Source: a virus. Taken from it: a DNA stretch of 27,186 bases. Under the pieces are notes generated by a model. The model was not told where the DNA came from. It made no database searches and saw only the letters and a list, made by a program, of their open reading frames with translations. The stretch's first letter is position 1, and the number at the start of each line of letters is the position of its first letter. The stretch covers positions 67,128 through 94,313 of the IMG/VR virus record IMGVR_UViG_3300031578_009495; one strand, 5' to 3'. Shown here one piece after another: positions 1,650 through 16,742 of the stretch. A program made the translations under genes and the position numbers.

Positions 1650-4600
1650 GCTTGTTGATTTTCTGGATGAGTATCAAGACGAGATAGCCGATTCAATCAT
1701 TCGCGACTACCCGCCTGTATATACGTTTAACGATAGAGAAAAATATGTTGATGATATAAAGAAACTGAAGCGCAAGCCATTCCTGTGCCAAATGGACGCA
1801 ATAAGTGCCTTGGCAAAGCTATTTTCAACAGAGGCCTCCGGAATCTTGGTCGGGGAAATGGGCACAGGTAAATCATTGATTTCTATAGCAATAGCCTATG
1901 TTTGTAAGTTTAAAAATGTACTTATTACAATGCCTCCACATTTGATATCGAAATATGAACGGGAAGTAATGATAACGATGCCGGAAGGTACCGCAAAGTG
2001 TCACCATCTTAAAAAGTTCACAGATGTTGATAAAGCAGTGGCATCGGCCAATGATGATCTGTATCACTTTTTCATTCTTGGCAGGGAGAGAGCAAAATTA
2101 AGCTATCAATGGAGACCGGCGTTTAATATAAAACAGAAAATTATTGAAATACCGGTAGCGGATAATGGAAATAGCCACATTGTTAAAAGAAAAGTAATAT
2201 TGGTTTGCTGCCCAAGATGTGGGGAGTTAATATATGACAAGGAGGGAATACCGCTTGGGCCAGAGGATCTTACTAAAAAGAAGACGGTGTGCGCTAACTG
2301 TAACGAACAAATGTGGCAAGCCAAGCAGGATGGCCCGAGACGATTTGCAGTTGCAGAATATATCAAGCGAAAACATAAGAATTTTTTTGACTTACTTGTG
2401 CTTGATGAATGTTTTCCAGCTGGCATTAAAGTAAAGACTAAATATGGAGAAAAAAGCATAGAGGATATAAAAATAGGTGAATATGTACTGTCTTTGGACG
2501 AAGATGGACTGGTTTATAAGAAAGTAGTTAGAGTCTTCAAGAAACTTGTCACTGGTCCTCTTGCGAATATTAAATATACTGATGGAAATCTGTTGTGTAC
2601 AAAGAACCACAATATTTATACCAATCGAGGAAAGATAAGGGCTGGTCAAATACAGTCAGCTGATATCATTTGGCGCTTAGAGGAGTGTAATCATGAAGAA
2701 GTGTGCAAGGTGTGGAAAAACACTAAAGAAAGAGAATGCCAAATATTGTTCAAAGAAATGTTTTTCATTGGCAATAACACAGTATCCAAAAACGATAAAA
2801 TGCAAGAGATGTGGGAAAAGCATGGTAGTTTATCGAGGGGGAAAAAGAAGCAAGAAATATTGTTCAGAAGAATGTCGACATTCCAAAAAAAGAAAATATC
2901 CATTTACAAGAGCATGCAAAGGGTGTGGCAAGGATATTTTAATAACATGCTCATCAAGACAAAAAAGACGTTTTTGCAATCCTTCCTGTTTGGTAAAATG
3001 GAGAATGCAGCATCCAGAGATGAGACCAAAAATAGTAATGACGGAAGAGCGAAAGCGAAAAATTGGAGAAAAGCAAAGGATTGCTCAGCAACGAAATCCG
3101 GAGTTGAGGAAAAACATATCAAAGAGAATGAAGCTAAACAACCCTATGAAACGACCAGAAATACGGAAAAAGGCTATCGAAGCGATGAGAGGGATGCCTT
3201 TCCCTGTAGAAAGAGGAGGCCGCGGGAAGGGACCGACCGTCCCACAAGCATTATTGGAGACAATACTTGGGTGGCCGATGGAGGTTACAATAAAGACAGG
3301 GAACAAAAAAATGCCATACTATTACAGTGCGGATTTGGCGGAAGAAACCTTGAAAATTGCAGTGGAGTGCGATGGGATTTCACACAAAATGTCAAAGGTG
3401 ATTGCGCGGGACCGAAGAAAAGACGAGATTTTACGGAAACTTGGATGGGTTGTATTGAGATTCAAGAACAGAGAAATTATAGAAGACACAAAGAGGGTAA
3501 TTTTAGAAATAGAAGAGTGTGTCCTAAAGAGGTCATTGGAGTTGAAGAGGTCAAGATAGCGCAGGTATATGTATATAATATAGAGGTTGAAGAAACCCAT
3601 AACTATTTTGCAGATGGAGTTCTTGTATCAAATTGTCACGAATATCGTGGTAGAAGTTCCGCACAAGGAATAAGTGCAGGCAATTTAGCCTCTGTTTGCA
3701 AACGATCTCTTGGTCTCTCGGGTACGATAGTGGGGGGTTATTCATCGAGTATTTTTCATTTATTGTACAGAATAACGAAAAGATTTAAAGATGACTATAA
3801 ACACGATGGAGTAAATTCTTGGATTAGCGATTACGGAATACTTGAACAGATAACAAAGAAATCAGCAGACGATTATAGCGACAACTCACAAAGTAAGGGA
3901 AAAAAATACGTATCGGCTCCTAGAGAAAAACCAGGAATTTCCCCGGTAATTCTGCCAAAATATCTTTTAGACAAAACTGTATTCATTCGACTAAGCGACA
4001 TAGCAATAGACCTACCACCTCTTACAGAGGAAATTGTTGATATTGAAATGTCAGCGGAACAAGAAGATGCTTACAACAACCTATACGATGATCTTAGAAT
4101 TGTTTTACTTGCAGAATTACAACGTGGCAACAAATCGCTTCTCGCTGTATATCTTCAGGCGTTATTGACATATCCTGACAGGTGCACCGTCGGGGAGTTT
4201 GTGTATAAAAAAACAGAAGGCGAAGAAGACCTGCTTATAGCATCGGCGCCGGCATTAAACGGTGACGTTTTATACCCAAAAGAACAGGCAATTATAGATC
4301 TGATCAAATCGGAAATGAAAGAAGGAAGAAAGGTTCTTGTGTTTTGTACCCATACCAACAGAAGAGACGTAACGGCACGACTGCAAGAAAAAATTCAATC
4401 TTTTGGAATAAGATCAGAAATATTAAAAGCAAATGTAGCTGCAGAAAAAAGAGAGGCATGGATTAAGGACCACGTAAACGATCTTGATTGTCTTATTACC
4501 AATCCTGCCCTTGTGCAGACCGGACTTGACCTTGTAGAGTTCCCCACAGTGGCATATTGTCAGTCTGGATATTCTGTCTATACCCTGAGACAGTCGTCAA

Positions 4601-5100
4601 GGAGATCTTGGAGAATAGGCCAAGATAAGCCGGTTAACATATACTATTTTGTTTATAGAGCTACCATGCAGGAGCAAGCCCTGAAGTTAATGGCCCTTAA
4701 AATGAAAGCAAGCCTTATCATAGAGGGTGAACTTGGAGAGGACGGGCTTGCCACATATAATGTTGGAAATGATAATCTGTTCTACGAACTTGCCAGGAAT
4801 ATCGCAAATAACATCTCAATAGATGGAGACCTGGAAACTATCTGGAAAACTGCACAGAAAAAGAAAGTAGATGGAAGTGATTTGTTGATAGAGAAAACGG
4901 ATATTGTGCCATCCCTTAACGACATTGTAGTGATTCCAGCAATAAAAATAGAGGAAAAGCATGAACTTTCCGCTTGGGATAAGCTGTATGTGGCCATGAT
5001 GCAAGAACAGGAGAAGAAACAGGATATTATGAGAGAGCGTAGAGAGAAAAGAGAAAGATTAAGACCAGCGGACGCACATCAGCAAATAGGATTGTTTTGA
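1606..5100 (+). CDS. SNF2/SF2-like helicase precursor containing an intein (about 756 aa after splicing; true start may be TTG 1636)
   Basis: Walker A GEMGTGKS, Zn-ribbon insert CPRC..CANC, motif II DE|CH split by the intein, motif III LSGT, motif V TGLDL and motif VI QSSRRSWRIGQ. Confidence 0.9.
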   Translation: MKNGMKRIIRLNTIKLVDFLDEYQDEIADSIIRDYPPVYTFNDREKYVDDIKKLKRKPFLCQMDAISALAKLFSTEASGILVGEMGTGKSLISIAIAYVCKFKNVLITMPPHLISKYEREVMITMPEGTAKCHHLKKFTDVDKAVASANDDLYHFFILGRERAKLSYQWRPAFNIKQKIIEIPVADNGNSHIVKRKVILVCCPRCGELIYDKEGIPLGPEDLTKKKTVCANCNEQMWQAKQDGPRRFAVAEYIKRKHKNFFDLLVLDECFPAGIKVKTKYGEKSIEDIKIGEYVLSLDEDGLVYKKVVRVFKKLVTGPLANIKYTDGNLLCTKNHNIYTNRGKIRAGQIQSADIIWRLEECNHEEVCKVWKNTKERECQILFKEMFFIGNNTVSKNDKMQEMWEKHGSLSRGKKKQEILFRRMSTFQKKKISIYKSMQRVWQGYFNNMLIKTKKTFLQSFLFGKMENAASRDETKNSNDGRAKAKNWRKAKDCSATKSGVEEKHIKENEAKQPYETTRNTEKGYRSDERDAFPCRKRRPREGTDRPTSIIGDNTWVADGGYNKDREQKNAILLQCGFGGRNLENCSGVRWDFTQNVKGDCAGPKKRRDFTETWMGCIEIQEQRNYRRHKEGNFRNRRVCPKEVIGVEEVKIAQVYVYNIEVEETHNYFADGVLVSNCHEYRGRSSAQGISAGNLASVCKRSLGLSGTIVGGYSSSIFHLLYRITKRFKDDYKHDGVNSWISDYGILEQITKKSADDYSDNSQSKGKKYVSAPREKPGISPVILPKYLLDKTVFIRLSDIAIDLPPLTEEIVDIEMSAEQEDAYNNLYDDLRIVLLAELQRGNKSLLAVYLQALLTYPDRCTVGEFVYKKTEGEEDLLIASAPALNGDVLYPKEQAIIDLIKSEMKEGRKVLVFCTHTNRRDVTARLQEKIQSFGIRSEILKANVAAEKREAWIKDHVNDLDCLITNPALVQTGLDLVEFPTVAYCQSGYSVYTLRQSSRRSWRIGQDKPVNIYYFVYRATMQEQALKLMALKMKASLIIEGELGEDGLATYNVGNDNLFYELARNIANNISIDGDLETIWKTAQKKKVDGSDLLIEKTDIVPSLNDIVVIPAIKIEEKHELSAWDKLYVAMMQEQEKKQDIMRERREKRERLRPADAHQQIGLF
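2410..3633 (+). mobile_element. Intein (408 aa) inserted in the helicase DECH motif
   Basis: Block A CFPAGIKVKT..KSIEDIKIGEYVLS, block B LCTKNH (TxxH), blocks F/G VYNIEVEETHNYFADGVLVSN, and Cys at +1. Removing it restores LVLDE-CHEY. Confidence 0.93.
2693..3559 (+). CDS. Nested out-of-frame endonuclease: Zn-ribbon repeats, NUMOD3-like region and DUF559/Vsr-like PD-(D/E)XK domain
   Basis: Own SD GAGGAG(2680-2685), 7 nt before the ATG. Three CxxCGK...(Y/F)C(S/N)xxC repeats. C-terminal 'ADLA....KIAVECDGISH.....RDRRKDEILRKLGWVVLRFKNREI'. Confidence 0.88.
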   Translation: MKKCARCGKTLKKENAKYCSKKCFSLAITQYPKTIKCKRCGKSMVVYRGGKRSKKYCSEECRHSKKRKYPFTRACKGCGKDILITCSSRQKRRFCNPSCLVKWRMQHPEMRPKIVMTEERKRKIGEKQRIAQQRNPELRKNISKRMKLNNPMKRPEIRKKAIEAMRGMPFPVERGGRGKGPTVPQALLETILGWPMEVTIKTGNKKMPYYYSADLAEETLKIAVECDGISHKMSKVIARDRRKDEILRKLGWVVLRFKNREIIEDTKRVILEIEECVLKRSLELKRSR

Positions 5101-5420
5101 TGAATACAGCAAAAACAATAAAATATTTACGCAAACGGATACCCAAGTTTGAATGTAAAAAATCTTGTACAGATTGTTGTGGGCCGATTGTGTTCTCAAA
5201 ATGGGAGTGGGACCAAGTAGAAAACAAGAAGACAGCGACCTCGCTTGATTGTCCTTATGCAAGCGAAGCCGGATGTGAAATATACGAACAAAGACCGATC
5301 TTATGCAGATTATTTGGAACCGTTCCAAAGATGAAATGCAATCATGGACGCGGGCATGCCAAACTTCTATCTGCTAAGAAAGAGAAAGAAATAATGAGGA
5401 AATATTATGAGATCATGTAA
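5097..5420 (+). CDS. YkgJ-family cysteine cluster protein (putative Zn/Fe-S)
   Basis: CKKSCTDCC, CPY, and CEIYEQRPILCRLFG. Confidence 0.85.
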   Translation: MMNTAKTIKYLRKRIPKFECKKSCTDCCGPIVFSKWEWDQVENKKTATSLDCPYASEAGCEIYEQRPILCRLFGTVPKMKCNHGRGHAKLLSAKKEKEIMRKYYEIM

Positions 5421-5448
5421 AATAATTAAAAAACATTGCATTATTCCC

Positions 5449-5477
5449 TTGACAAATGTTTTTTTAATTATTATTAT
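5449..5477 (+). promoter_or_regulatory. Sigma70-type promoter
   Basis: TTGACA(5449-5454), 17-nt spacer, TATTAT(5472-5477). Confidence 0.7.
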
Positions 5478-6258: not shown

Positions 6259-6408
6259 ATGCGGAGACAAATAGGAACATTCCACGGCAGAGATGTGTAT
6301 TGGACTCACGACGGCCTGGCTATTGAGATGGACTTCAGTTATCTCGTTGCGCTGGATCTTGAAATGATCGAAAACATACGAAAACAAGTTGGAGGTTATT
6401 ATGCTTAG
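6259..6408 (+). CDS. Small hypothetical protein (49 aa, MRRQIGTFHGRDVYW...)
   Basis: Open frame with AGGGA upstream; fills the gap between neighbouring genes. Confidence 0.4.
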   Translation: MRRQIGTFHGRDVYWTHDGLAIEMDFSYLVALDLEMIENIRKQVGGYYA

Positions 6409-8214: not shown

Positions 8215-8421
8215 ATGTTTAACAAAGGAAAAATTAAAGAGCTACGAGAAAAGAAAAAATGGTCGCTGGCAGATGTGGTTTACGAACTAGCAAAAAGGGA
8301 GCACAGGTATGCCAGACAGACTGTAAGCAATTGGGAGCTTGGGATAACAGAACCAAAAGCTTCCGATGTTGCGGCCCTGGCAGAGGCATTTGGTGTGCCT
8401 GTTAAAGTATTTTTTGAATAG
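8215..8421 (+). CDS. XRE/Cro-family HTH regulator
   Basis: IKELREKKKWS...RQTVSNWELGITEP....ALAEAFGV. Confidence 0.9.
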   Translation: MFNKGKIKELREKKKWSLADVVYELAKREHRYARQTVSNWELGITEPKASDVAALAEAFGVPVKVFFE

Positions 8422-8493
8422 GGGTGCCATGGAAGAAAAAGAATGGCAGGAGTTTGCAATATGGTTACATGAATTAAAAATGGGGAGGGCAAA

Positions 8494-9525
8494 ATGACAG
8501 AGGTAAATTCAGTAGAAAAAGAGATAGAAAGGTATAAAAAGCTTGGGGCAAATCTGTTGGGACCTTCAATCCACGCTGGCGAAGTTTCACAGTTTCACAA
8601 GATTATAGTTGATTCGGTATTGTTATCGGTTGATCCAAATGATGGAGATGTCTATAGCTACAAGAAGGCAACAAACGATCAGCCTGCTCAGTTTATTATT
8701 GCTGGGCAAGGACTCCAGCGATTAGCTATGTGCGCTGGTATAGTATGGAGTCCAAACGATACCAGGGCAACGTCTCAGTCTCAAAAGTATGTAGCTTATC
8801 GTGCTGTTGGGTCTATTCGTAAAAGCGATGGAACGTTTACTGGATTTCAGGCAGAATATGATATAGACATAGATATCGTTGAAGATGACCTGCGCGAAAA
8901 TTTCGCAGAAAAAAGAAAAAAATGGAGCGAGCAACAATGGTTTCAAAAGCTGGGGGCAGACGGTCAAAACAACTACATAGAGACAGCTATCCGTAAAGAG
9001 TTAAATTTCAAAAAGAAACACAAGACTAAGATCGCGGCTTCAGGGGCGAAAAATCGTGTAATTCGCGTACTGTTGGGTATCAAGAAGACCTATACACTTG
9101 CTGAATTAAAGAAACCATTCGTTATCCCGCGTGTAGTTCTAAGGCCTAATTATAATGACCCGGATGTAAAGAAAATGATGCTTGTGGCAGCTATCCAAGC
9201 ACAAACAAGCATATTCGGCGCAGCTCCAAGTCAGTTATTGGAAGATTATGTACAATTGCCGGAAGAAGATCCTCCTATCGATATTCCGATAAGCGATTTT
9301 GACAATGAAGACCCCCCCGGACCAGAAACACCGGACAACCTTACCAGCAAAAAAGCAGACTTCCTTGCATCTGACAATCAGTCTAAAATAACCATACTTG
9401 ATGCAATGGCAAAGATGGCCGGCTACGATCTTCATCAAATTAAAAAACCGCTGGACAAGTTTACAGAGGAAGAACTCGAAGGTTTTTTTGATAGACTGGA
9501 TGATCTTTTAGAAATTCCATTTTGA
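8494..9525 (+). CDS. Hypothetical protein, possible single-strand annealing/recombination protein
   Basis: Position between cro and sbcDC. Globular N-domain (GLQRLA..AGI; A.SGAKNRVIR.LLG), acidic/Pro linker and acidic 'EIPF' SSB-like tail. Function is inferred only. Confidence 0.5.
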   Translation: MTEVNSVEKEIERYKKLGANLLGPSIHAGEVSQFHKIIVDSVLLSVDPNDGDVYSYKKATNDQPAQFIIAGQGLQRLAMCAGIVWSPNDTRATSQSQKYVAYRAVGSIRKSDGTFTGFQAEYDIDIDIVEDDLRENFAEKRKKWSEQQWFQKLGADGQNNYIETAIRKELNFKKKHKTKIAASGAKNRVIRVLLGIKKTYTLAELKKPFVIPRVVLRPNYNDPDVKKMMLVAAIQAQTSIFGAAPSQLLEDYVQLPEEDPPIDIPISDFDNEDPPGPETPDNLTSKKADFLASDNQSKITILDAMAKMAGYDLHQIKKPLDKFTEEELEGFFDRLDDLLEIPF

Positions 9526-10217: not shown

Positions 10218-10415
10218 ATGATAAAAACTATCCAGGAAAGATTAAACTGGTGCAACAAAAGGCTCAGCCAAATTATTTTTGCACAAAAGACTTTTGAACC
10301 TGCTGAACTGCCTTTTGCTTATGGTAGTGGTCGGATCAGGGAACTGGAAAATCAGATAGCGTTTCTTGAAGGCATTATCAAAGGCCACATAAAAGGAAAG
10401 GGGGTGATGAGATGA
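10218..10415 (+). CDS. Hypothetical protein (65 aa)
   Basis: Part of track ORF 10143..10415, with SD AAGGAGG before ATG 10218. The stop overlaps the sbcD start. Confidence 0.6.
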   Translation: MIKTIQERLNWCNKRLSQIIFAQKTFEPAELPFAYGSGRIRELENQIAFLEGIIKGHIKGKGVMR

Positions 10416-11623
10416 AAAAGATACTTCATTTCGGGGATATACATGCGCGCGATAAGGATATTGATGAGGTTGAGAAATGCCTTAATTTTATGGTATCTGT
10501 TGCTAAAGAAGAGCAACCAGATCTCTTGGTGAATGCAGGCGATACTTTTGATGCAGGTGGAATTCGCGCTGATAGTTTGTCTGCAAAACTTATCTTTAAG
10601 ATATTTAAAGAATTGGCAGACATAGCGCCAGTTATTATTATCACTGGGACTCCCAGTCATGATAGTAATATTCCATCTCTTCTTAAATATATATCGGCAA
10701 GATACCCTATATTTGTTTCTGAGCGGCCAGAGCAAATCTATCTTTGCAAAGGTGATCTTAATGCAGACCCAGCAAAGCTTTTTGCACCTATAGAAGCCGT
10801 TATATCGACATTGCCATCGCCAACCAAGCAACATTGGAATTCAGACTCAAGTATTAATGAAACAGATGCGGAGATCGGGGCTGCTCTTAGTGGAATTTTT
10901 GCAGGATTTGGCGCTCAAGCTGCTCAATATGATTGTCCACATATCTTAATGATGCATTGTACTATAAGGGGAGCAAAGCTATCTGAAAATACTCAAATGA
11001 TAGGCAGGGATATCGAAGTTGGAAAGGATCAGATTAAACTAACAAATGCAAACCTGGTTTGTTGTTCGCACATACATTATGCCCAGGCTATCGATAAAAT
11101 CACATTCTATTCAGGCAGTCTCTTCCAGGGAGACTCAAGCGAGTTTGGCCAAAACTTTGGATTCTATATCCACGAAATAGATACTGCAAACCGATTGCAG
11201 GCATCTAAATACATCATCACACCCTATACAAAATTATATGCAATCAAACATGATTTCACTGACTCACAAGGCGACTTCCTGGTGCCCTTCACACCGGAAA
11301 CTCTAAAGAATGTGCGGGATGCGGTAGTAAAAGTCGAGATAAAAGTTTTTGAAGATGAAGTTGCAAAAATAGATCGTGAAGATCTGGAACGTAATCTTTC
11401 AGAGGCAAAAAGTTACGATATAAAGATTATCAGAACGCCAAGGGAGAACGTTCGGAGTGAGAACATATTGAAACTTGTAAGGCTGAGAGACAAGCTGACC
11501 GAGATGGCGAAATTGAAGAATGAAGATGTTCCGGAACCTATTTTGGCAAAGGCCGATGAACTTGAGTCTATGGAAGGTGATGAGATTGTGGCATTGGCTT
11601 GGTCGATAATATTTAAAAAATAA
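10412..11623 (+). CDS. sbcD: SbcD/Mre11-like metallophosphoesterase nuclease
   Basis: HFGDIH, AGDTFD, GTPSHD, SHIH and YSGS motifs; adjacent to an SMC ATPase. Confidence 0.88.
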   Translation: MKKILHFGDIHARDKDIDEVEKCLNFMVSVAKEEQPDLLVNAGDTFDAGGIRADSLSAKLIFKIFKELADIAPVIIITGTPSHDSNIPSLLKYISARYPIFVSERPEQIYLCKGDLNADPAKLFAPIEAVISTLPSPTKQHWNSDSSINETDAEIGAALSGIFAGFGAQAAQYDCPHILMMHCTIRGAKLSENTQMIGRDIEVGKDQIKLTNANLVCCSHIHYAQAIDKITFYSGSLFQGDSSEFGQNFGFYIHEIDTANRLQASKYIITPYTKLYAIKHDFTDSQGDFLVPFTPETLKNVRDAVVKVEIKVFEDEVAKIDREDLERNLSEAKSYDIKIIRTPRENVRSENILKLVRLRDKLTEMAKLKNEDVPEPILAKADELESMEGDEIVALAWSIIFKK

Positions 11624-11889: not shown

Positions 11890-14184
11890 ATGAAAATATT
11901 GAGATTACGCACTAAAGGATTTATTGGACTACAAAAAGGACTTGGGGTACAAGAAACAGACACAGATTTGAAAAATTTGTCGGGGCTGGTGGCAATTGCC
12001 GGGGAAAACGGAGCTGGCAAGAGCAGTTTTCTTGAATTACTTTCGCCGTATGCTTGCCTATTTTCAAGATCTCCGACATTCAAGAACCACACTTTTCTCC
12101 GCGATAGTTACCGCATAATTGATCTTGAATACGAAGGATCGCATTATGAATGTACTGTAAAGATAGATAGCGAAACGGGCAAAAGTGAAGGCTACATAAA
12201 GAAAGACGGATTATCATTAACCGACGGGAAAATTAGCACCTACAGTCAAAAGGTTGAAGAAATATTTGGCTCAAAGACATTATTCGAAAACTCCATATTT
12301 TGCCCTCAAAACAGCAGGAAGATTTCGGACCTTACAACCGGTCAGCTAAAGTCCCTCTTCGCAGAATTTCTCCGATTAGATAAATTGATATCATACGAAA
12401 CCACCTCCAAGCAATGCCTTGTAGTCATAGAATCCTTACGCAAGCACATAGAAAGCGAGACGAGCATCCTGAAAAATAAGGCAGAAAACCGACCTGAGAT
12501 CGAGCGTGAGCTATCAGAAAAGACAACTAAGTGCGAAGAGTTGCAGGAAGAAATAAAACGGCTCACAGCTCAAATAAGCGAGTTGGAAAAAGATTATGAA
12601 ACCATAAAGGAATCTATATCGAAAGATGCGATAAAAAATAGCCGATTGAAAGACCTCGAACAAAACAGGACCCGCTTTAAGGAAGACAAAGACAGAGAAC
12701 TTGAATCAACTGAAAATGAACTTAACAGGCTGCGGATCACGCTACGCGGAATAAACGACGAGCTATGTAAATATGAATTCTTGTTGAAGGACAAAGATAA
12801 AATACTTGAGGCCTGTCGGCAAGAAGCAGATATTTTAGAACAAATCCCTACCACTGAAAAAGATATTGATAATAGAAAAAAGGAGTTAGACAGATACAAT
12901 GCTGAAATAAACGAAATAGCAAAAACAATTGATGAGCGAAGGAGGATTATAGATGCCGGAAAGAAAGATCCGGAAATTGCAAGACTCGAAGCGGAAATCA
13001 GGTTTAATCGTGAAAAGGCAGTTGACCTCTCGAAAAGAGATCCCGAATGCCAAAGCAAGGTATGCTCGTTTATTGTTGGAGCGCTCAAGGCACAAGACGA
13101 GATTCCAAGCATGGAAGAAAACCTATCTATCAGACAGGGACTTATTTCTGTAACAATTCATAAAGCTACTGAAGAGATGGAAAACAGCAATGGCTTCCTG
13201 CCAGGAATTGAACAAAAACAAAAAGATAGTGAAACCGTCCTCCAGGAATTAAAAGAAGAGAAACAGAGACTTGATAATACCCTAAAAACTGTACGCAAAC
13301 TATCAATAAAGAAACCCGACTTGGCTGTAGCTGTTTCGCAAACAGATAACCTGGAAAAAAGAAAAGGGGAGATCACAGACGAAGGAATAAGACTTAGAGA
13401 CAAAAAAGAGAAGGCTATAGAAAGAATTGATAAAGAGGAACAGATTTTATCTGTAGAAATAGACGATATCCAAAAAGAAATAGACAACAGCTTGGATGAA
13501 AAGAAAGCAAGCTTAGAACAAATGATCAAGCTAACAACTTTTACCACTAAAGATACGAATAAGAAAATATCTGGTATAAATGAAAGCATAGCAGTTTTAA
13601 AACAGACGATATCCGAAAAGATATCCGCAGAAAAAGAACTGGCGGTCAAGAAAACCCGGATTGACAAGCTTATCCAAGAACAAAGTGAATGGATTTATCT
13701 GCGGAATGCCTGCTCTAAGGACGGTTTAAGGGCGCTTGAAATCGATAGCGTTTGTCCTGTTATTACTAATTATGCAAATGAGCTGCTAAATATGAGCTTT
13801 GGTCCAACATACTCAATAAAACTGAAAACTCAGAATGACGATGGGAAGGAAATTTTAGATATTGTGGTGATAGGAGTCGATGGCGAAGAGGTTGTACTTG
13901 ATAATCTCAGTGGAGGAGAAAAATGCTGGATATTGATGTGTATCAGGCTATCTATGACACTTATCAGTAAAGAAAAGAGTGGTAAGAACTTTTTAACTGG
14001 GTTTTCGGATGAGATAGATGGATCACTTGACGTAAACAGGGCGATTGATTTTATGCATATGTATCGGGCCTTTATGAAGCTTGGTGGGTTTGAAACCTTT
14101 TATTTTATCTCGCATAAAACGGAAATAATTTCGCTCGCTGATCATATCATTAAGTTTGGAAGTGGGCAGATAGCAATGGATTGA
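11890..14184 (+). CDS. sbcC: SbcC/Rad50-like SMC ATPase
   Basis: Walker A GENGAGKS, Q-loop FCPQ, long coiled coil, signature LSGGE, Walker B/D-loop SDEIDGSLD and H-switch ISH. Confidence 0.92.
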   Translation: MKILRLRTKGFIGLQKGLGVQETDTDLKNLSGLVAIAGENGAGKSSFLELLSPYACLFSRSPTFKNHTFLRDSYRIIDLEYEGSHYECTVKIDSETGKSEGYIKKDGLSLTDGKISTYSQKVEEIFGSKTLFENSIFCPQNSRKISDLTTGQLKSLFAEFLRLDKLISYETTSKQCLVVIESLRKHIESETSILKNKAENRPEIERELSEKTTKCEELQEEIKRLTAQISELEKDYETIKESISKDAIKNSRLKDLEQNRTRFKEDKDRELESTENELNRLRITLRGINDELCKYEFLLKDKDKILEACRQEADILEQIPTTEKDIDNRKKELDRYNAEINEIAKTIDERRRIIDAGKKDPEIARLEAEIRFNREKAVDLSKRDPECQSKVCSFIVGALKAQDEIPSMEENLSIRQGLISVTIHKATEEMENSNGFLPGIEQKQKDSETVLQELKEEKQRLDNTLKTVRKLSIKKPDLAVAVSQTDNLEKRKGEITDEGIRLRDKKEKAIERIDKEEQILSVEIDDIQKEIDNSLDEKKASLEQMIKLTTFTTKDTNKKISGINESIAVLKQTISEKISAEKELAVKKTRIDKLIQEQSEWIYLRNACSKDGLRALEIDSVCPVITNYANELLNMSFGPTYSIKLKTQNDDGKEILDIVVIGVDGEEVVLDNLSGGEKCWILMCIRLSMTLISKEKSGKNFLTGFSDEIDGSLDVNRAIDFMHMYRAFMKLGGFETFYFISHKTEIISLADHIIKFGSGQIAMD

Positions 14185-14247
14185 GATTTATTAATAGGTG
14201 GATTATATTTTCTGCCTATCACACTGTTATATTGCCGAAAGGAAACT

Positions 14248-14385
14248 GTGAAATATTTTTTTGATATACAAAGTTCGGTGTTTAGGTTTTTACCAAAAAG
14301 ATACCAAAGGAAAATTGGGAAAGACTATCAGATAACTATAAAATGGTTATGGTTTTGGATACGGTTACAGGCAATTGATGAATAA
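14248..14385 (+). CDS. Cassette ORF 1, hypothetical (45 aa, MKYFFDIQSSVFRF...)
   Basis: Follows GTTATAT(14226) and an AAGGA SD; stop abuts attC1. Confidence 0.55.
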   Translation: MKYFFDIQSSVFRFLPKRYQRKIGKDYQITIKWLWFWIRLQAIDE

Positions 14386-14484
14386 TATAACCAGCAGTTG
14401 CAGCCGACCATACAAGCTGGTTCGCTCTCGTAAGGTTATTTATTCCGCCACGCTCCAACGTGGCGGCTGAACTGAACGTTAGAT
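14385..14484 (+). mobile_element. attC-like site 1 (100 bp)
   Basis: R'' ATATAAC, L'' CAGTT(G)CAGCCG pairing with L' CGGCTGAACTG with one extrahelical base, R' GTTAGAT. Confidence 0.8.
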
Positions 14485-14503
14485 TTCTTGAGGAGATAAG
14501 AGC

Positions 14504-14638
14504 ATGGAAGAGATTACATGTAGTGTATGCGGTTGTCATGTAGGGTGGATCACAGACAATGCCCCGAAAGGATTCATATATTGTGACGACTGCAAAAAAC
14601 AAGACGAAGACGAAGAAGAAGAAGAAAGCGAAATATAA
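14504..14638 (+). CDS. Cassette ORF 2, Zn-ribbon microprotein with acidic tail (44 aa)
   Basis: SD GAGGAG; CSVC...CDDC then DEDEEEEESE. Its stop TAA lies inside R'' of attC2. Confidence 0.7.
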   Translation: MEEITCSVCGCHVGWITDNAPKGFIYCDDCKKQDEDEEEEESEI

Positions 14639-14694
14639 CCAGCCGCTGGACTCTGACGGCAAAAAACCGCCGCAGGTCAGCTATAACGTTATAT
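14633..14694 (+). mobile_element. attC-like site 2 (62 bp)
   Basis: R'' ATATAAC, GCTG(G)AC(T)CTG pairing with CAGGTCAGC with two extrahelical bases, inner stem CGGC/GCCG, R' GTTATAT. Confidence 0.85.
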
Positions 14695-14707
14695 GTAAGA
14701 GGAAATT

Positions 14708-14860
14708 ATGATACCATATCCATTATTAGAAATTAAAATAAAATATAATTGGTTTTCTACTGTTTATTCTTTGTGGGATCTTTTGAATCAGTGCAAACTT
14801 GCAAAAGCTGATTTTCATGAGATGAAAAATGATTTAAGAATATTTGGGTTTAACATATAA
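14708..14860 (+). pseudogene. Cassette ORF 3, apparently frameshifted (MIPYP/LLEIKIKYNWF...FGFNI)
   Basis: SD GAGGA and ATG 14708, with a stop after 9 codons. Removing one C from the CCC at 14719-14721 gives a ~49-aa frame ending in ATATAAC. Confidence 0.45.
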
Positions 14861-14881
14861 CACACAGATTCAGCTTTCGTA

Positions 14882-15070
14882 ATGTATAAACATCCAGAAA
14901 TAAAAGATGATGAGTTTATGCTGTCTAATGTTAAAGTCGGCGAAGAATGGCTATTTGGATTTTTCGATAGACAGCCGACTAAAAATGGCAGGCTTGGCAA
15001 AATAGCATACGACAATATGGGCTACGAAGTGCCTGGGCATGTTCCTATTTTTGTGAAACGAGAAATATAA
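14882..15070 (+). CDS. Cassette ORF 4, hypothetical (62 aa)
   Basis: In the ORF track. Its stop lies inside ATATAAC(15065-15071), followed by a half attC (AAATCACTGGAGCTAACGG). Confidence 0.65.
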   Translation: MYKHPEIKDDEFMLSNVKVGEEWLFGFFDRQPTKNGRLGKIAYDNMGYEVPGHVPIFVKREI

Positions 15071-15109
15071 CAAATCACTGGAGCTAACGGAAGAAATTGG
15101 ATTATTAGC

Positions 15110-15922
15110 ATGGCTCGCAATAGAATGATAAAAACTGAATTTTGGGAAGATGAAAAATTAGCGACCATAAGTAGAGATTCAAGATTGACATTCATTGCCT
15201 TATGGAATTTATCAGACGATTACGGAGTTGTTAAGGGGAATTCGATTTGGCTGAAAAATAGAATCTTTCCTTATGATGAAAAACTTAAACTGGTTGATTT
15301 TGAAGTTTGGTTAAATGAACTTATAAATGTTAAAACCATCTATCCGTTTAATGATAATAATGAGAAGTATTATTATATCAAGAACTTCCTCAAACATCAA
15401 AAAATAAATAGGCCATCGGAAAAAAGAAATCCTGAGCCACCAATAAATATTTTGGAGGACTCATTGAATACTCATGGAATATTCAATGAGTCCTCATTAA
15501 ATACTCACGGAGTATTCAATGAGGACTCATGTCCCAAAGAGAAAGAGAAAGAGAAAGAGAAAGAGAAAGAGAAAGAGAAAGAGAAAGAGAAAGAGAAAAA
15601 AACCAATAAGAGATTACCGGATTGGTTGCCCTTAGAAATATGGAATGAATTTAAAAAATATCGCATTAAAATAAAAAAACCTCTTACAGAATACGCTGAG
15701 ACTTTAAACATAAAAAAATTAGAAAAACTTAAGGAGCATGGAAACGATCCAATAAAAATTATAGAGCAAACTATAATGCAAGGGTGGCAAGGTTTTTTCC
15801 CACTTAAAGAAAAGCAAGGAGAGAATGATGCAAGGTTTAAAAGTGAGAATGGAAAGAATGGAACACACGAGGATGGCGATGATAAATATTCAAAGCTTGG
15901 TAGAACCCTATCTACAGAATAA
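15110..15922 (+). CDS. Phage replication initiator / replisome organiser
   Basis: MARNRMIKTEFWEDEK N-domain (wHTH type), internal iterons, (KE)10 linker and C-domain 'W.EFKKYR..IKKPLT...QGWQGFF'. Lies directly upstream of a DnaC-like ATPase. Confidence 0.85.
   Translation: MARNRMIKTEFWEDEKLATISRDSRLTFIALWNLSDDYGVVKGNSIWLKNRIFPYDEKLKLVDFEVWLNELINVKTIYPFNDNNEKYYYIKNFLKHQKINRPSEKRNPEPPINILEDSLNTHGIFNESSLNTHGVFNEDSCPKEKEKEKEKEKEKEKEKEKEKKTNKRLPDWLPLEIWNEFKKYRIKIKKPLTEYAETLNIKKLEKLKEHGNDPIKIIEQTIMQGWQGFFPLKEKQGENDARFKSENGKNGTHEDGDDKYSKLGRTLSTE
15455..15535. repeat. Iteron array, probable replication origin
   Basis: Degenerate 11-bp tandem units (ACTCATTGAAT, ACTCATGGAAT, ATTCAATGAGT, CCTCATTAAAT, ACTCACGGAGT, ATTCAATGAGG). 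Perfect 16-bp inverted repeat at 15455-15470/15480-15495. Confidence 0.75.
15536..15595 (+). repeat. (AAAGAG)x10 perfect hexamer microsatellite
   Basis: Directly visible; encodes (KE)10. Confidence 0.95.
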
Positions 15923-16742
15923 AGACATAGTCAAAGCAAGAGAGGTGTTAATAGAAGAGTTAGAAAAAATTGATATGGATACAAAAAGAATTGCAGCTTT
16001 TGTTGAATTGTTTGAAAAATATCCACCAGACAATGAAGAATGTCCTATTTGTAAAGAAAAAACAATAGGGCACATATTTAATGATCATAAAGTTGAATGG
16101 GAATTAATATTATTTTGTAAGCCATGTAAATTAGAAGAATATAAAAAAACATTATACAAAGAAATAGATGTAAAAATGACGGACGTTGTTTCAAAAAGAT
16201 ATTGGGATGCAAAAATATCTGATTTTCCATCTATGTATAAAGATTTACATAAAAAAGAAGATGGTCTTTTCCTTTATGGCGCGAGGGGCGTTGGGAAAAC
16301 CCATCTAATGGCCGCCATCGCAAGAGAAATCATATTAAATACTAAACCACATCTATTGGAAGGATGTGGGCGCCCAGGGGAATATGTAAGCTCTGTAAAT
16401 ATTCCGGTTTTTATATCGACACCTGAATTATTAATACAGATAAGAAATTGCTTTAATAATAAAAATGCAGATGATGGAGTCACAGAAGAATGGCTTTTGG
16501 ATAAATATAGCAGAGCAGATGTCTTAATGCTTGACGATTTAGGGGCAGAAAAACCAACAGAATGGGTATTACAGACATTATATTTAATTATAGATAGAAG
16601 ATATCGAAACATGAAAAAAACCATAGTATCGTCCAATTATAGTCTAGGCCAAATTACAAAAAGACTTGATGATCGTATCAGTAGTAGAATTGCAGGGATG
16701 TGCCAGGTTATTCAAATGACGGGAAAAGATCGACGACTATAA
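15825..16742 (+). CDS. DnaC/IstB-like AAA+ helicase loader
   Basis: CPIC..CKPC Zn site, Walker A GARGVGKT, Walker B LMLDDLGAE, 'IIDRRY', 'SSN' and 'RISSRI'. Confidence 0.92.
   Translation: MMQGLKVRMERMEHTRMAMINIQSLVEPYLQNKDIVKAREVLIEELEKIDMDTKRIAAFVELFEKYPPDNEECPICKEKTIGHIFNDHKVEWELILFCKPCKLEEYKKTLYKEIDVKMTDVVSKRYWDAKISDFPSMYKDLHKKEDGLFLYGARGVGKTHLMAAIAREIILNTKPHLLEGCGRPGEYVSSVNIPVFISTPELLIQIRNCFNNKNADDGVTEEWLLDKYSRADVLMLDDLGAEKPTEWVLQTLYLIIDRRYRNMKKTIVSSNYSLGQITKRLDDRISSRIAGMCQVIQMTGKDRRL

Follow-up and report, generated by a model that had tools for sequence, protein, structure and literature searches.

Integron-type attC sites bounding microprotein cassettes in a T4-like soil phage: a probable small, partly decayed CALIN between the SbcCD-like genes and the replication initiator

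Genomic setting of the array

The window, by which we mean the whole stretch of 27,186 nt analyzed here, corresponds to positions 67128-94313 of an IMG/VR virus record of 94,313 nt (IMGVR_UViG_3300031578_009495), whose completeness is about 52% (CheckV). The source is an uncultured T4-like soil phage, large and of virulent type, and the GC content of its DNA is 38.6%. Unless given as positions of the record, all coordinates below are those of the window.

On the plus strand, an SbcD-like phosphoesterase gene (10412-11623; Pfam Metallophos) precedes a gene encoding an SbcC-like ATPase of 764 aa (11890-14184; Pfam AAA_23 and PHROG 77, SbcC-like), which forms the left flank of the array. The right flank is a replication initiation protein gene (15110-15922; PHROG 1408 and others, Pfam Bac_DnaA), followed by a DnaC/IstB-like loader gene (15825-16742; Pfam IstB_IS21), both also on the plus strand. 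Between these two gene pairs lie four co-oriented cassettes, each composed of one tiny ORF with an attC at its end, two of these sites being intact and two being left halves. An earlier note on this DNA had placed an attC cassette array of microproteins inside a phage replication module, and both the setting and the nature of the array, i.e., integron-type attC sites bounding small co-oriented cassettes, are borne out.

Two further observations concern the flanks. A long stretch of repeated Lys-Glu dipeptides is encoded within the initiator gene (window 15530-15600), and contigs from the soil runs break at that simple repeat. A sigma-70-like match (10/12) is present at 14181-14209, overlapping the end of sbcC directly upstream of the array; it is a consensus match only, and could drive the cassettes.

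Two complete attC sites

The shorter of the two complete sites, attC2 (14633-14694, plus strand, 62 nt), is composed of R'' ATATAAC, a 5-nt spacer, L'', an 8-nt loop, L', a 6-nt spacer and R' GTTATAT. Folded as single-stranded DNA, it forms a 7-bp R stem, then 5 and 6 unpaired nucleotides on either arm, then an L stem in which the bulged bases 14649, 14652 and 14656 are all on the plus-strand 5' arm. The other, attC1 (14385-14484, plus strand, 100 nt), is arranged in the same order, with R'' ATATAAC, a 5-nt spacer, L'', a long branched middle, L', a second 5-nt spacer and R' GTTAGAT. Its bulged bases, G14400 and A14407, are six pairs apart and are likewise carried by the plus-strand 5' arm, its two spacers remain unpaired (5 and 5 nt), and its long middle forms hairpins of its own in the predicted fold. 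As the bulges of both sites are on the plus-strand 5' arm, the plus strand corresponds to the conventional top strand, and the bottom strand would be the one that recombines.

The AAC/GTT core of the R boxes is exact in both sites, which are one position off the RYYYAAC/GTTRRRY consensus; the GTTAT variant of the R box is also present in an IntI-linked array of a Smithellaceae MAG (see below). The window contains 11 copies of ATATAAC, where 4.8 would be expected, and 6 of these 11 copies are found within 14226-15071. Each of the four plus-strand copies at the array overlaps or abuts the TAA stop of an ORF, the four ORFs having 45, 44, 50 and 62 aa. The two complete attC-like sites with R and L boxes and extrahelical bases, and the four tiny ORFs ending in or against ATATAAC, had both been noticed by the earlier reader, and the fold and the covariance model described below agree with that reading.

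Other kinds of element were searched for at the same place. No terminator-like site (a hairpin followed by a T run) is found in 13800-15400, and no promoter-like site is found inside the hairpins. Rfam gives no match in the window; it returned no attC-type match, and is hence uninformative on attC. The two sites, in contrast to an intrinsic terminator, combine inverted 7-nt R boxes, unpaired spacers, extrahelical bases on one arm, a covariance match and a location at the 3' end of a co-oriented ORF. By every criterion of sequence and structure, 14385-14484 and 14633-14694 are thus canonical integron-type attC sites.

A covariance model of the attC family and its controls

A fishing pattern was drawn from attC2 together with a similar site in another part of the record. 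It matches 5 loci in a prokaryote collection and 9 in a viral collection, and all 14 loci plainly belong to one type of site, their stems showing compensatory changes in 7 pairs. These 14 members of the family, which come from viral contigs and from genomes other than that of the phage, were used to build the covariance model R1. When applied to the window, R1 finds just attC2 (69.8 bits, E 1e-18, a score with some circularity, since attC2 had supplied the fishing pattern) and attC1 (39.2 bits, E 1.8e-9), both full-length and on the plus strand only. When applied to the 94-kb record, it gives five matches only, all on the plus strand and all at ORF ends. The covariance-model check suggested in the earlier note thus recovers both sites, with a model of our own rather than that of IntegronFinder.

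Three tests are independent of the pattern, namely attC1 itself, plasmid R100 and the sites of the Smithellaceae integron. On 50 kb of plasmid R100, R1 gives a single match (36.2 bits, E 2.7e-8), which is the aadA1 attC, adjoining aadA1 on its downstream side, and intI1. On the Smithellaceae MAG, it gives three co-oriented minus-strand sites (at 1976493, 1977490 and 1977935). An IntI with a score of 405.9 bits (cut-off 265) lies 1.9-3.4 kb away from them, in the canonical divergent orientation.

Near-identical attC2 cores are present in a contig of an archaeal MAG and in viral contigs. A stem and loop almost identical to those of attC2 are found at 3105-3165 of L017, a 3.9-kb contig binned as an archaeon, and at 5133-5194 of L020, a complete viral genome of 62.8 kb; in both, the flanks and the R boxes differ. 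In each of the four soil runs, the attC2 core (14639-14683) is also matched by contigs from other organisms, with 4-5 differences over 45 nt and unrelated flanks. The attC subfamily to which attC2 belongs appears to be common in these soils.

A second array, related viral arrays and the integrase

The three other R1 matches of the record form a second array of three complete attC sites, at record positions 8399-8457, 9225-9279 and 9411-9470 (plus strand; 52.6, 26.2 and 63.3 bits). This array lies some 58 kb ahead of the window. Its sites delimit one cassette with a DNA methyltransferase and another, small one, and an ORF encoding a zinc-ribbon microprotein lies in front of the array. Outside these two arrays, the attC-like motif is not used in the phage record.

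Neither IntI (TIGR02249) nor any tyrosine recombinase (PF00589) is matched in the 94-kb record, which is about 52% complete. The array had previously been called integrase-less: no such gene is found in the record, and the statement holds for that part of the genome only. The array therefore agrees with the definition of a CALIN, with two complete attC sites 149 nt apart and no intI in a 94-kb record that is about 52% complete. It is not a complete integron as far as the record extends, having within it neither an intI nor a recognizable site context at its left boundary.

Co-oriented arrays of the same attC family are present in viral contigs, with six sites in L026, four in L021, four in L028 and two in L027. 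None of five other viral records carrying this family encodes an IntI scoring above the cut-off. One of these records, which has terminal repeats, is 100% complete. L021 (IMGVR_UViG_3300033145_001841), whose four co-oriented attC sites extend over 4028-5469 on the minus strand, has a 444-aa protein in common with the window phage (58% identity), and its array is located elsewhere and among other genes. That array is flanked by a 951-aa gene on one side and, on the other, by a 128-aa ORF beside the 444-aa homologue. The 951-aa gene looks like a restriction-modification enzyme, and a 239-aa ORF among the cargo of the array looks like a PAPS reductase.

The cassette ORFs

ORF1 (14248-14385, plus strand, 45 aa) is a putative ORF with a GTG start in cassette 1 (14227-14478); it has no Pfam or PHROG match and no support as a gene. 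ORF2 (14504-14638, plus strand, 44 aa), which is preceded by a good RBS and whose stop TAA lies inside the R'' of attC2, encodes a zinc ribbon with four Cys, after which comes an acidic helix at the C-terminus. Its homologues are about 25 small proteins of 34-59% identity with four invariant Cys and an acidic tail. Its structure model has a pLDDT of 89.9 and gives no significant fold match in the PDB, only generic zinc fingers being returned. An identity as Pfam Lar was considered and set aside, the match (E 0.006) being below the cut-off. The ORF2 family is absent from the five other attC-bearing viral records. A 108-aa minus-strand ORF (14336-14662) was likewise rejected, as it is antisense to the conserved ORF2 as well as to attC1 and part of attC2.

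ORF3 (14708-14860, plus strand, 50 aa) also has a good RBS, and its stop TAA lies inside an R'' remnant. Its sole homologue, P0008 (56 aa, 86% identity), carries the 18-nt in-frame insert (at window position 14801) of a near-identical strain in soil run X2. As this insertion preserves the phase, the ORF3 frame is kept in that variant. ORF4 (14882-15070, plus strand, 62 aa) is a conserved small phage protein without a Shine-Dalgarno sequence, and its structure model is poor (pLDDT 54). No relative of ORF3 and none of ORF4 is found in the viral contig collection. ORF3 and ORF4 share a reading frame, with a single TAA and seven sense codons between them (window 14858-14884).

The four homologues of ORF4 (64-80% identity) begin five codons earlier. 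In the window, the in-frame read-through before ORF4 still aligns with these homologues through an invariant Phe, no start codon is left there, and ORF4 now starts at an internal codon changed from Ile to Met. A relative of ORF4 (in L044) and a relative of ORF2 (in L045) are both located in ordinary rows of small phage genes that have no attC. Judging from these homologues, ORF2 and ORF4 are phage-type genes that happen to be cassette-borne here. A role of the cassette products in host takeover or counter-defence would be our guess.

The signature of circular cassettes and the left end of the array

The last six bases of each R' in an array of cassettes belong to the next cassette. The R' end is consequently expected to be complementary to the R'' of that next cassette, rather than to the R'' of its own site. 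When variable and flanking positions of both phage arrays are counted, pairing along the chain, i.e., between R' of one site and R'' of the following one, gives 25 matches out of 32, against 19 out of 40 within sites. The Smithellaceae integron follows the same rule of chain complementarity. In cassettes 1-3, the match between start and end extends 1, 3 and 2 bases beyond the 7-mers, in comparison to 1 and 0 for pairing within the sites, so that the start-to-end complementarity pointed out in the earlier note is found as claimed. As the R'' boxes of the window array are all the same 7-mer, the chain signal there is carried by the six flanking bases, and we estimate its chance probability to be below about 1e-3.

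The left boundary of the array (14226-14232, plus strand) is a bare GTTATAT core, with the presumed G|TT crossover point, and is complementary to the R'' of cassette 1 and to one more base. The chance probability of this 8-nt match is estimated at about 0.03. No L' or spacer context is present upstream of the core, which right-half matrices rank between 437 and 902, so that it is not the right half of an attC. From its sequence, the left end at 14226 fits an insertion into a simple secondary site.

Half sites and site erosion

Two other sites are truncated. The attC3 remnant (14855-14874, plus strand), recognized from its complementarity and with a left-half matrix, retains a secure R'' ATATAAC and 5-nt spacer, followed by 8 L''-like bases that are ambiguous, the remainder being deleted. 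The attC4 remnant (15065-15088, plus strand), recognized with the same matrix, is composed of R'' ATATAAC, a 5-nt spacer and an L''-like block, and its right half is deleted; the initiator gene starts 22 nt past it. A separate matrix was used for these half sites because the left part of R1 is frozen by the fishing pattern. It is 20 nt long, was derived from 14 external sites that were not chosen by the pattern, and was used to rank 188,586 positions of the record.

The five complete sites of the record rank 1, 2, 3, 5 and 6 with this matrix, attC1 being second (and first with a 24-nt matrix). The half site at 15065 ranks fourth and that at 14855 eighth. Position 6267 of the record (minus strand), near the second array, ranks seventh and may be another attC remnant. 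The half site at 15065 shares 15 of 20 bases with the left half of a complete site in the second array (record position 8399), and the remnant at 14855 is complementary at 9 of 9 positions to the start of cassette 3 (14688-14696). In truncated mode, R1 reports neither 14855 nor 15065, although the left half of attC2, used as a control, scores 22.2 bits. The two truncated left halves that the earlier note had recognized are therefore recovered by the left-half matrix, though not by R1.

From their sequence, the half sites look like deletion remnants. The 8 L''-like bases of attC3 (14867-14874) are located where the lost first codons of ORF4 would fall. Since the homologues of ORF4 start five codons earlier and no start codon is left there, a deletion appears to have taken away both the bulk of attC3 and the 5' end of cassette 4, including the native start of ORF4. 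Erosion of the attC sites, as also proposed beforehand, is then the simplest reading of the half sites, two sites being reduced to left halves and ORF4 having lost the N-terminus of its homologues.

Comparison of strains and relatives

In two to three other soil runs containing the phage or near-identical strains, the order of the cassettes is unchanged wherever it is covered by the contigs, which are patchy and of low depth. No excision joint and no cassette-free or rearranged form is found in the contigs of four soil runs, and these are of a depth so low that rare excision products could not appear in them. A search through SbcC gave no close relative. The relatives reached through the initiator are only 29-49% identical and none of them has an R1 match. 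As all these relatives are distant ones, they do not allow cassette content to be compared between close relatives.

Discussion

Our results point to a small, partly decayed CALIN inserted between the SbcCD-like genes and the replication initiator of a T4-like soil phage. We give this reading, including an origin by the action of host IntI, a probability of about 0.78. Capture and shuffling of the cassettes by a host IntI, as suggested by the earlier note, is what we infer from the anatomy of the sites and from published assays on attC sites of other phages. The array could have been formed during the infection of integron-bearing hosts, whose IntI would insert circular cassettes into the phage DNA by recombining their folded bottom strand. 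A simple GTT secondary site, at 14226, would have received the first cassette, and the resident attC those that came later. The cassettes, which are promoterless, would now be expressed by read-through from phage promoters. In the absence of a phage integrase, and under a pressure for compactness, the hairpin-prone attC sites would tend to be deleted, and through one such deletion the 62-aa gene would have lost its start codon as well. Both sites that are still intact should remain substrates for any IntI that the phage encounters.

One could alternatively propose that the block of cassettes is a passive passenger, copied from an integron or from another phage by illegitimate or homologous recombination, and that IntI never acted on the phage genome. 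An off-target or illegitimate route has been raised for other phage CALINs (Qi et al., PMC9892861), and G|TT crossovers are found neither at the right end nor between cassettes 3 and 4, where the junctions are those of an ordinary deletion or fusion. The chain complementarity would in that case come from the donor array, and no variation in cassette content is seen, in data that consist of contigs only. The clean GTTATAT left end, which is complementary to the R'' of cassette 1 and is not preceded by an attC right half, is nevertheless the pattern of an IntI insertion into a secondary site. Moreover, the same phage contains a second, separate array, and the same attC family forms arrays at unrelated positions of other phage contigs, which would need either repeated site-specific events or many independent accidents. 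We thus regard a mere copying of the block as unlikely. Even less probable, in our opinion, is that an IntI or another recombinase using these sites is encoded in the missing 48% or so of the genome. Such a gene could escape a record of 52% completeness (CheckV), and a few phages with intI have been found by Qi et al. (PMC9892861). However, the 94 kb contain neither an IntI nor a PF00589 domain; five other viral records of this attC family are without IntI, even the one that is 100% complete; and the sites match the substrates of classical IntI.

The hairpins might finally be regulatory or structural elements of the phage that merely resemble attC, such as terminators, RNA processing sites or mobile promoter/stem-loop cassettes of T4 type. 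The latter, named PeSLs (promoter-early stem-loops), are reportedly mobile regulatory cassettes of T4-type phages, composed of an early promoter and a simple stem-loop, and acting via homologous recombination. In the phage as in the case of PeSLs, small ORFs in a plastic T4-like region are separated by repeated stem-loops thought to mediate shuffling, and the location between small co-oriented genes would suit a regulatory element. The hairpins described here, unlike PeSLs, contain no promoter and have the geometry of attC, which is kept down to its asymmetric spacers and its bulges on a single arm. Although attC sites are thought to contain weak terminators (Qi et al., PMC9892861), no T-run terminator accompanies the hairpins. 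In addition, R1 also finds the aadA1 attC and sites adjoining an IntI, and the motif is otherwise confined, in this phage, to the second array. A chance likeness of regulatory hairpins to attC is therefore hardly credible.

The preferred reading, a CALIN of host-IntI origin, has direct precedents. The first report of CALINs in virulent phages dates from 2023 (Qi et al., PMC9892861). Five of the 6 phage CALIN attC sites tested are recombined by IntI1 at G|TTRRRY, and methyltransferase cassettes are found in such arrays (PMC9892861). Like these, the phage studied here has at least two co-oriented attC sites bounding small cassettes and no intI, and its second array also contains a methyltransferase cassette. 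It differs from them in being a T4-like soil phage with two separate arrays, ORFs of 44-62 aa and, in the window, 2 of 4 sites reduced to left halves, and in being known from its sequence alone. The array is thus a new example of the published phage CALINs, and not a new type of element. Its interest lies in the presence of two arrays in one T4-like phage, the microprotein cargo, the visible decay of the sites and a very conserved attC subfamily that it shares with an IntI-linked bacterial array.

Two cellular systems allow the sites to be compared with those of true integrons. The aadA1 attC (In2/Tn21, R100) aligns with R1 over its full length (36.2 bits, versus 39.2 and 69.8 for the phage sites), has the same R''-spacer-L''...L'-spacer-R' layout, and its bulges are positioned as in attC1, six pairs apart. 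In contrast to it, the phage sites have no adjacent intI, attI or Pc, their R boxes (ATATAAC/GTTATAT) are one position off the consensus, and their first bulged top-strand base is G instead of C. The sedentary chromosomal integron of the Smithellaceae MAG (G002:C2, about 1.975-1.981 Mb) shares with the phage the attC subfamily, a CAGCC spacer, an L'' that begins with GCT and the chain complementarity of the R boxes. The difference is the IntI (405.9 bits) which is beside that array and has no counterpart in the phage.

A broader possibility, which we put forward as speculative and consider rather doubtful, is that virulent phages serve as a main reservoir and a main carrier of a single, highly conserved attC subfamily, and that they turn their own small early genes into cassettes. 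Counter-defence microproteins of phages and defence cassettes of bacteria would then be traded on one IntI platform. This idea is suggested by the 9 viral against 5 prokaryotic loci matched by the fishing pattern, despite the far larger size of the prokaryote collection, by the fact that members of the ORF2 and ORF4 families are found with attC in some places and without it in others, and by the presence of near-identical attC cores in unrelated contigs.

The decay of an array that is away from its integrase is illustrated by the two eroded sites. Microprotein cassettes such as these are missed by gene callers, and surveys of cassettes that start from called genes may undercount such cargo. 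The case finally supports phages as a route for the movement of cassettes between hosts, and suggests that phages can draw on the integrases of their hosts to swap small accessory genes.
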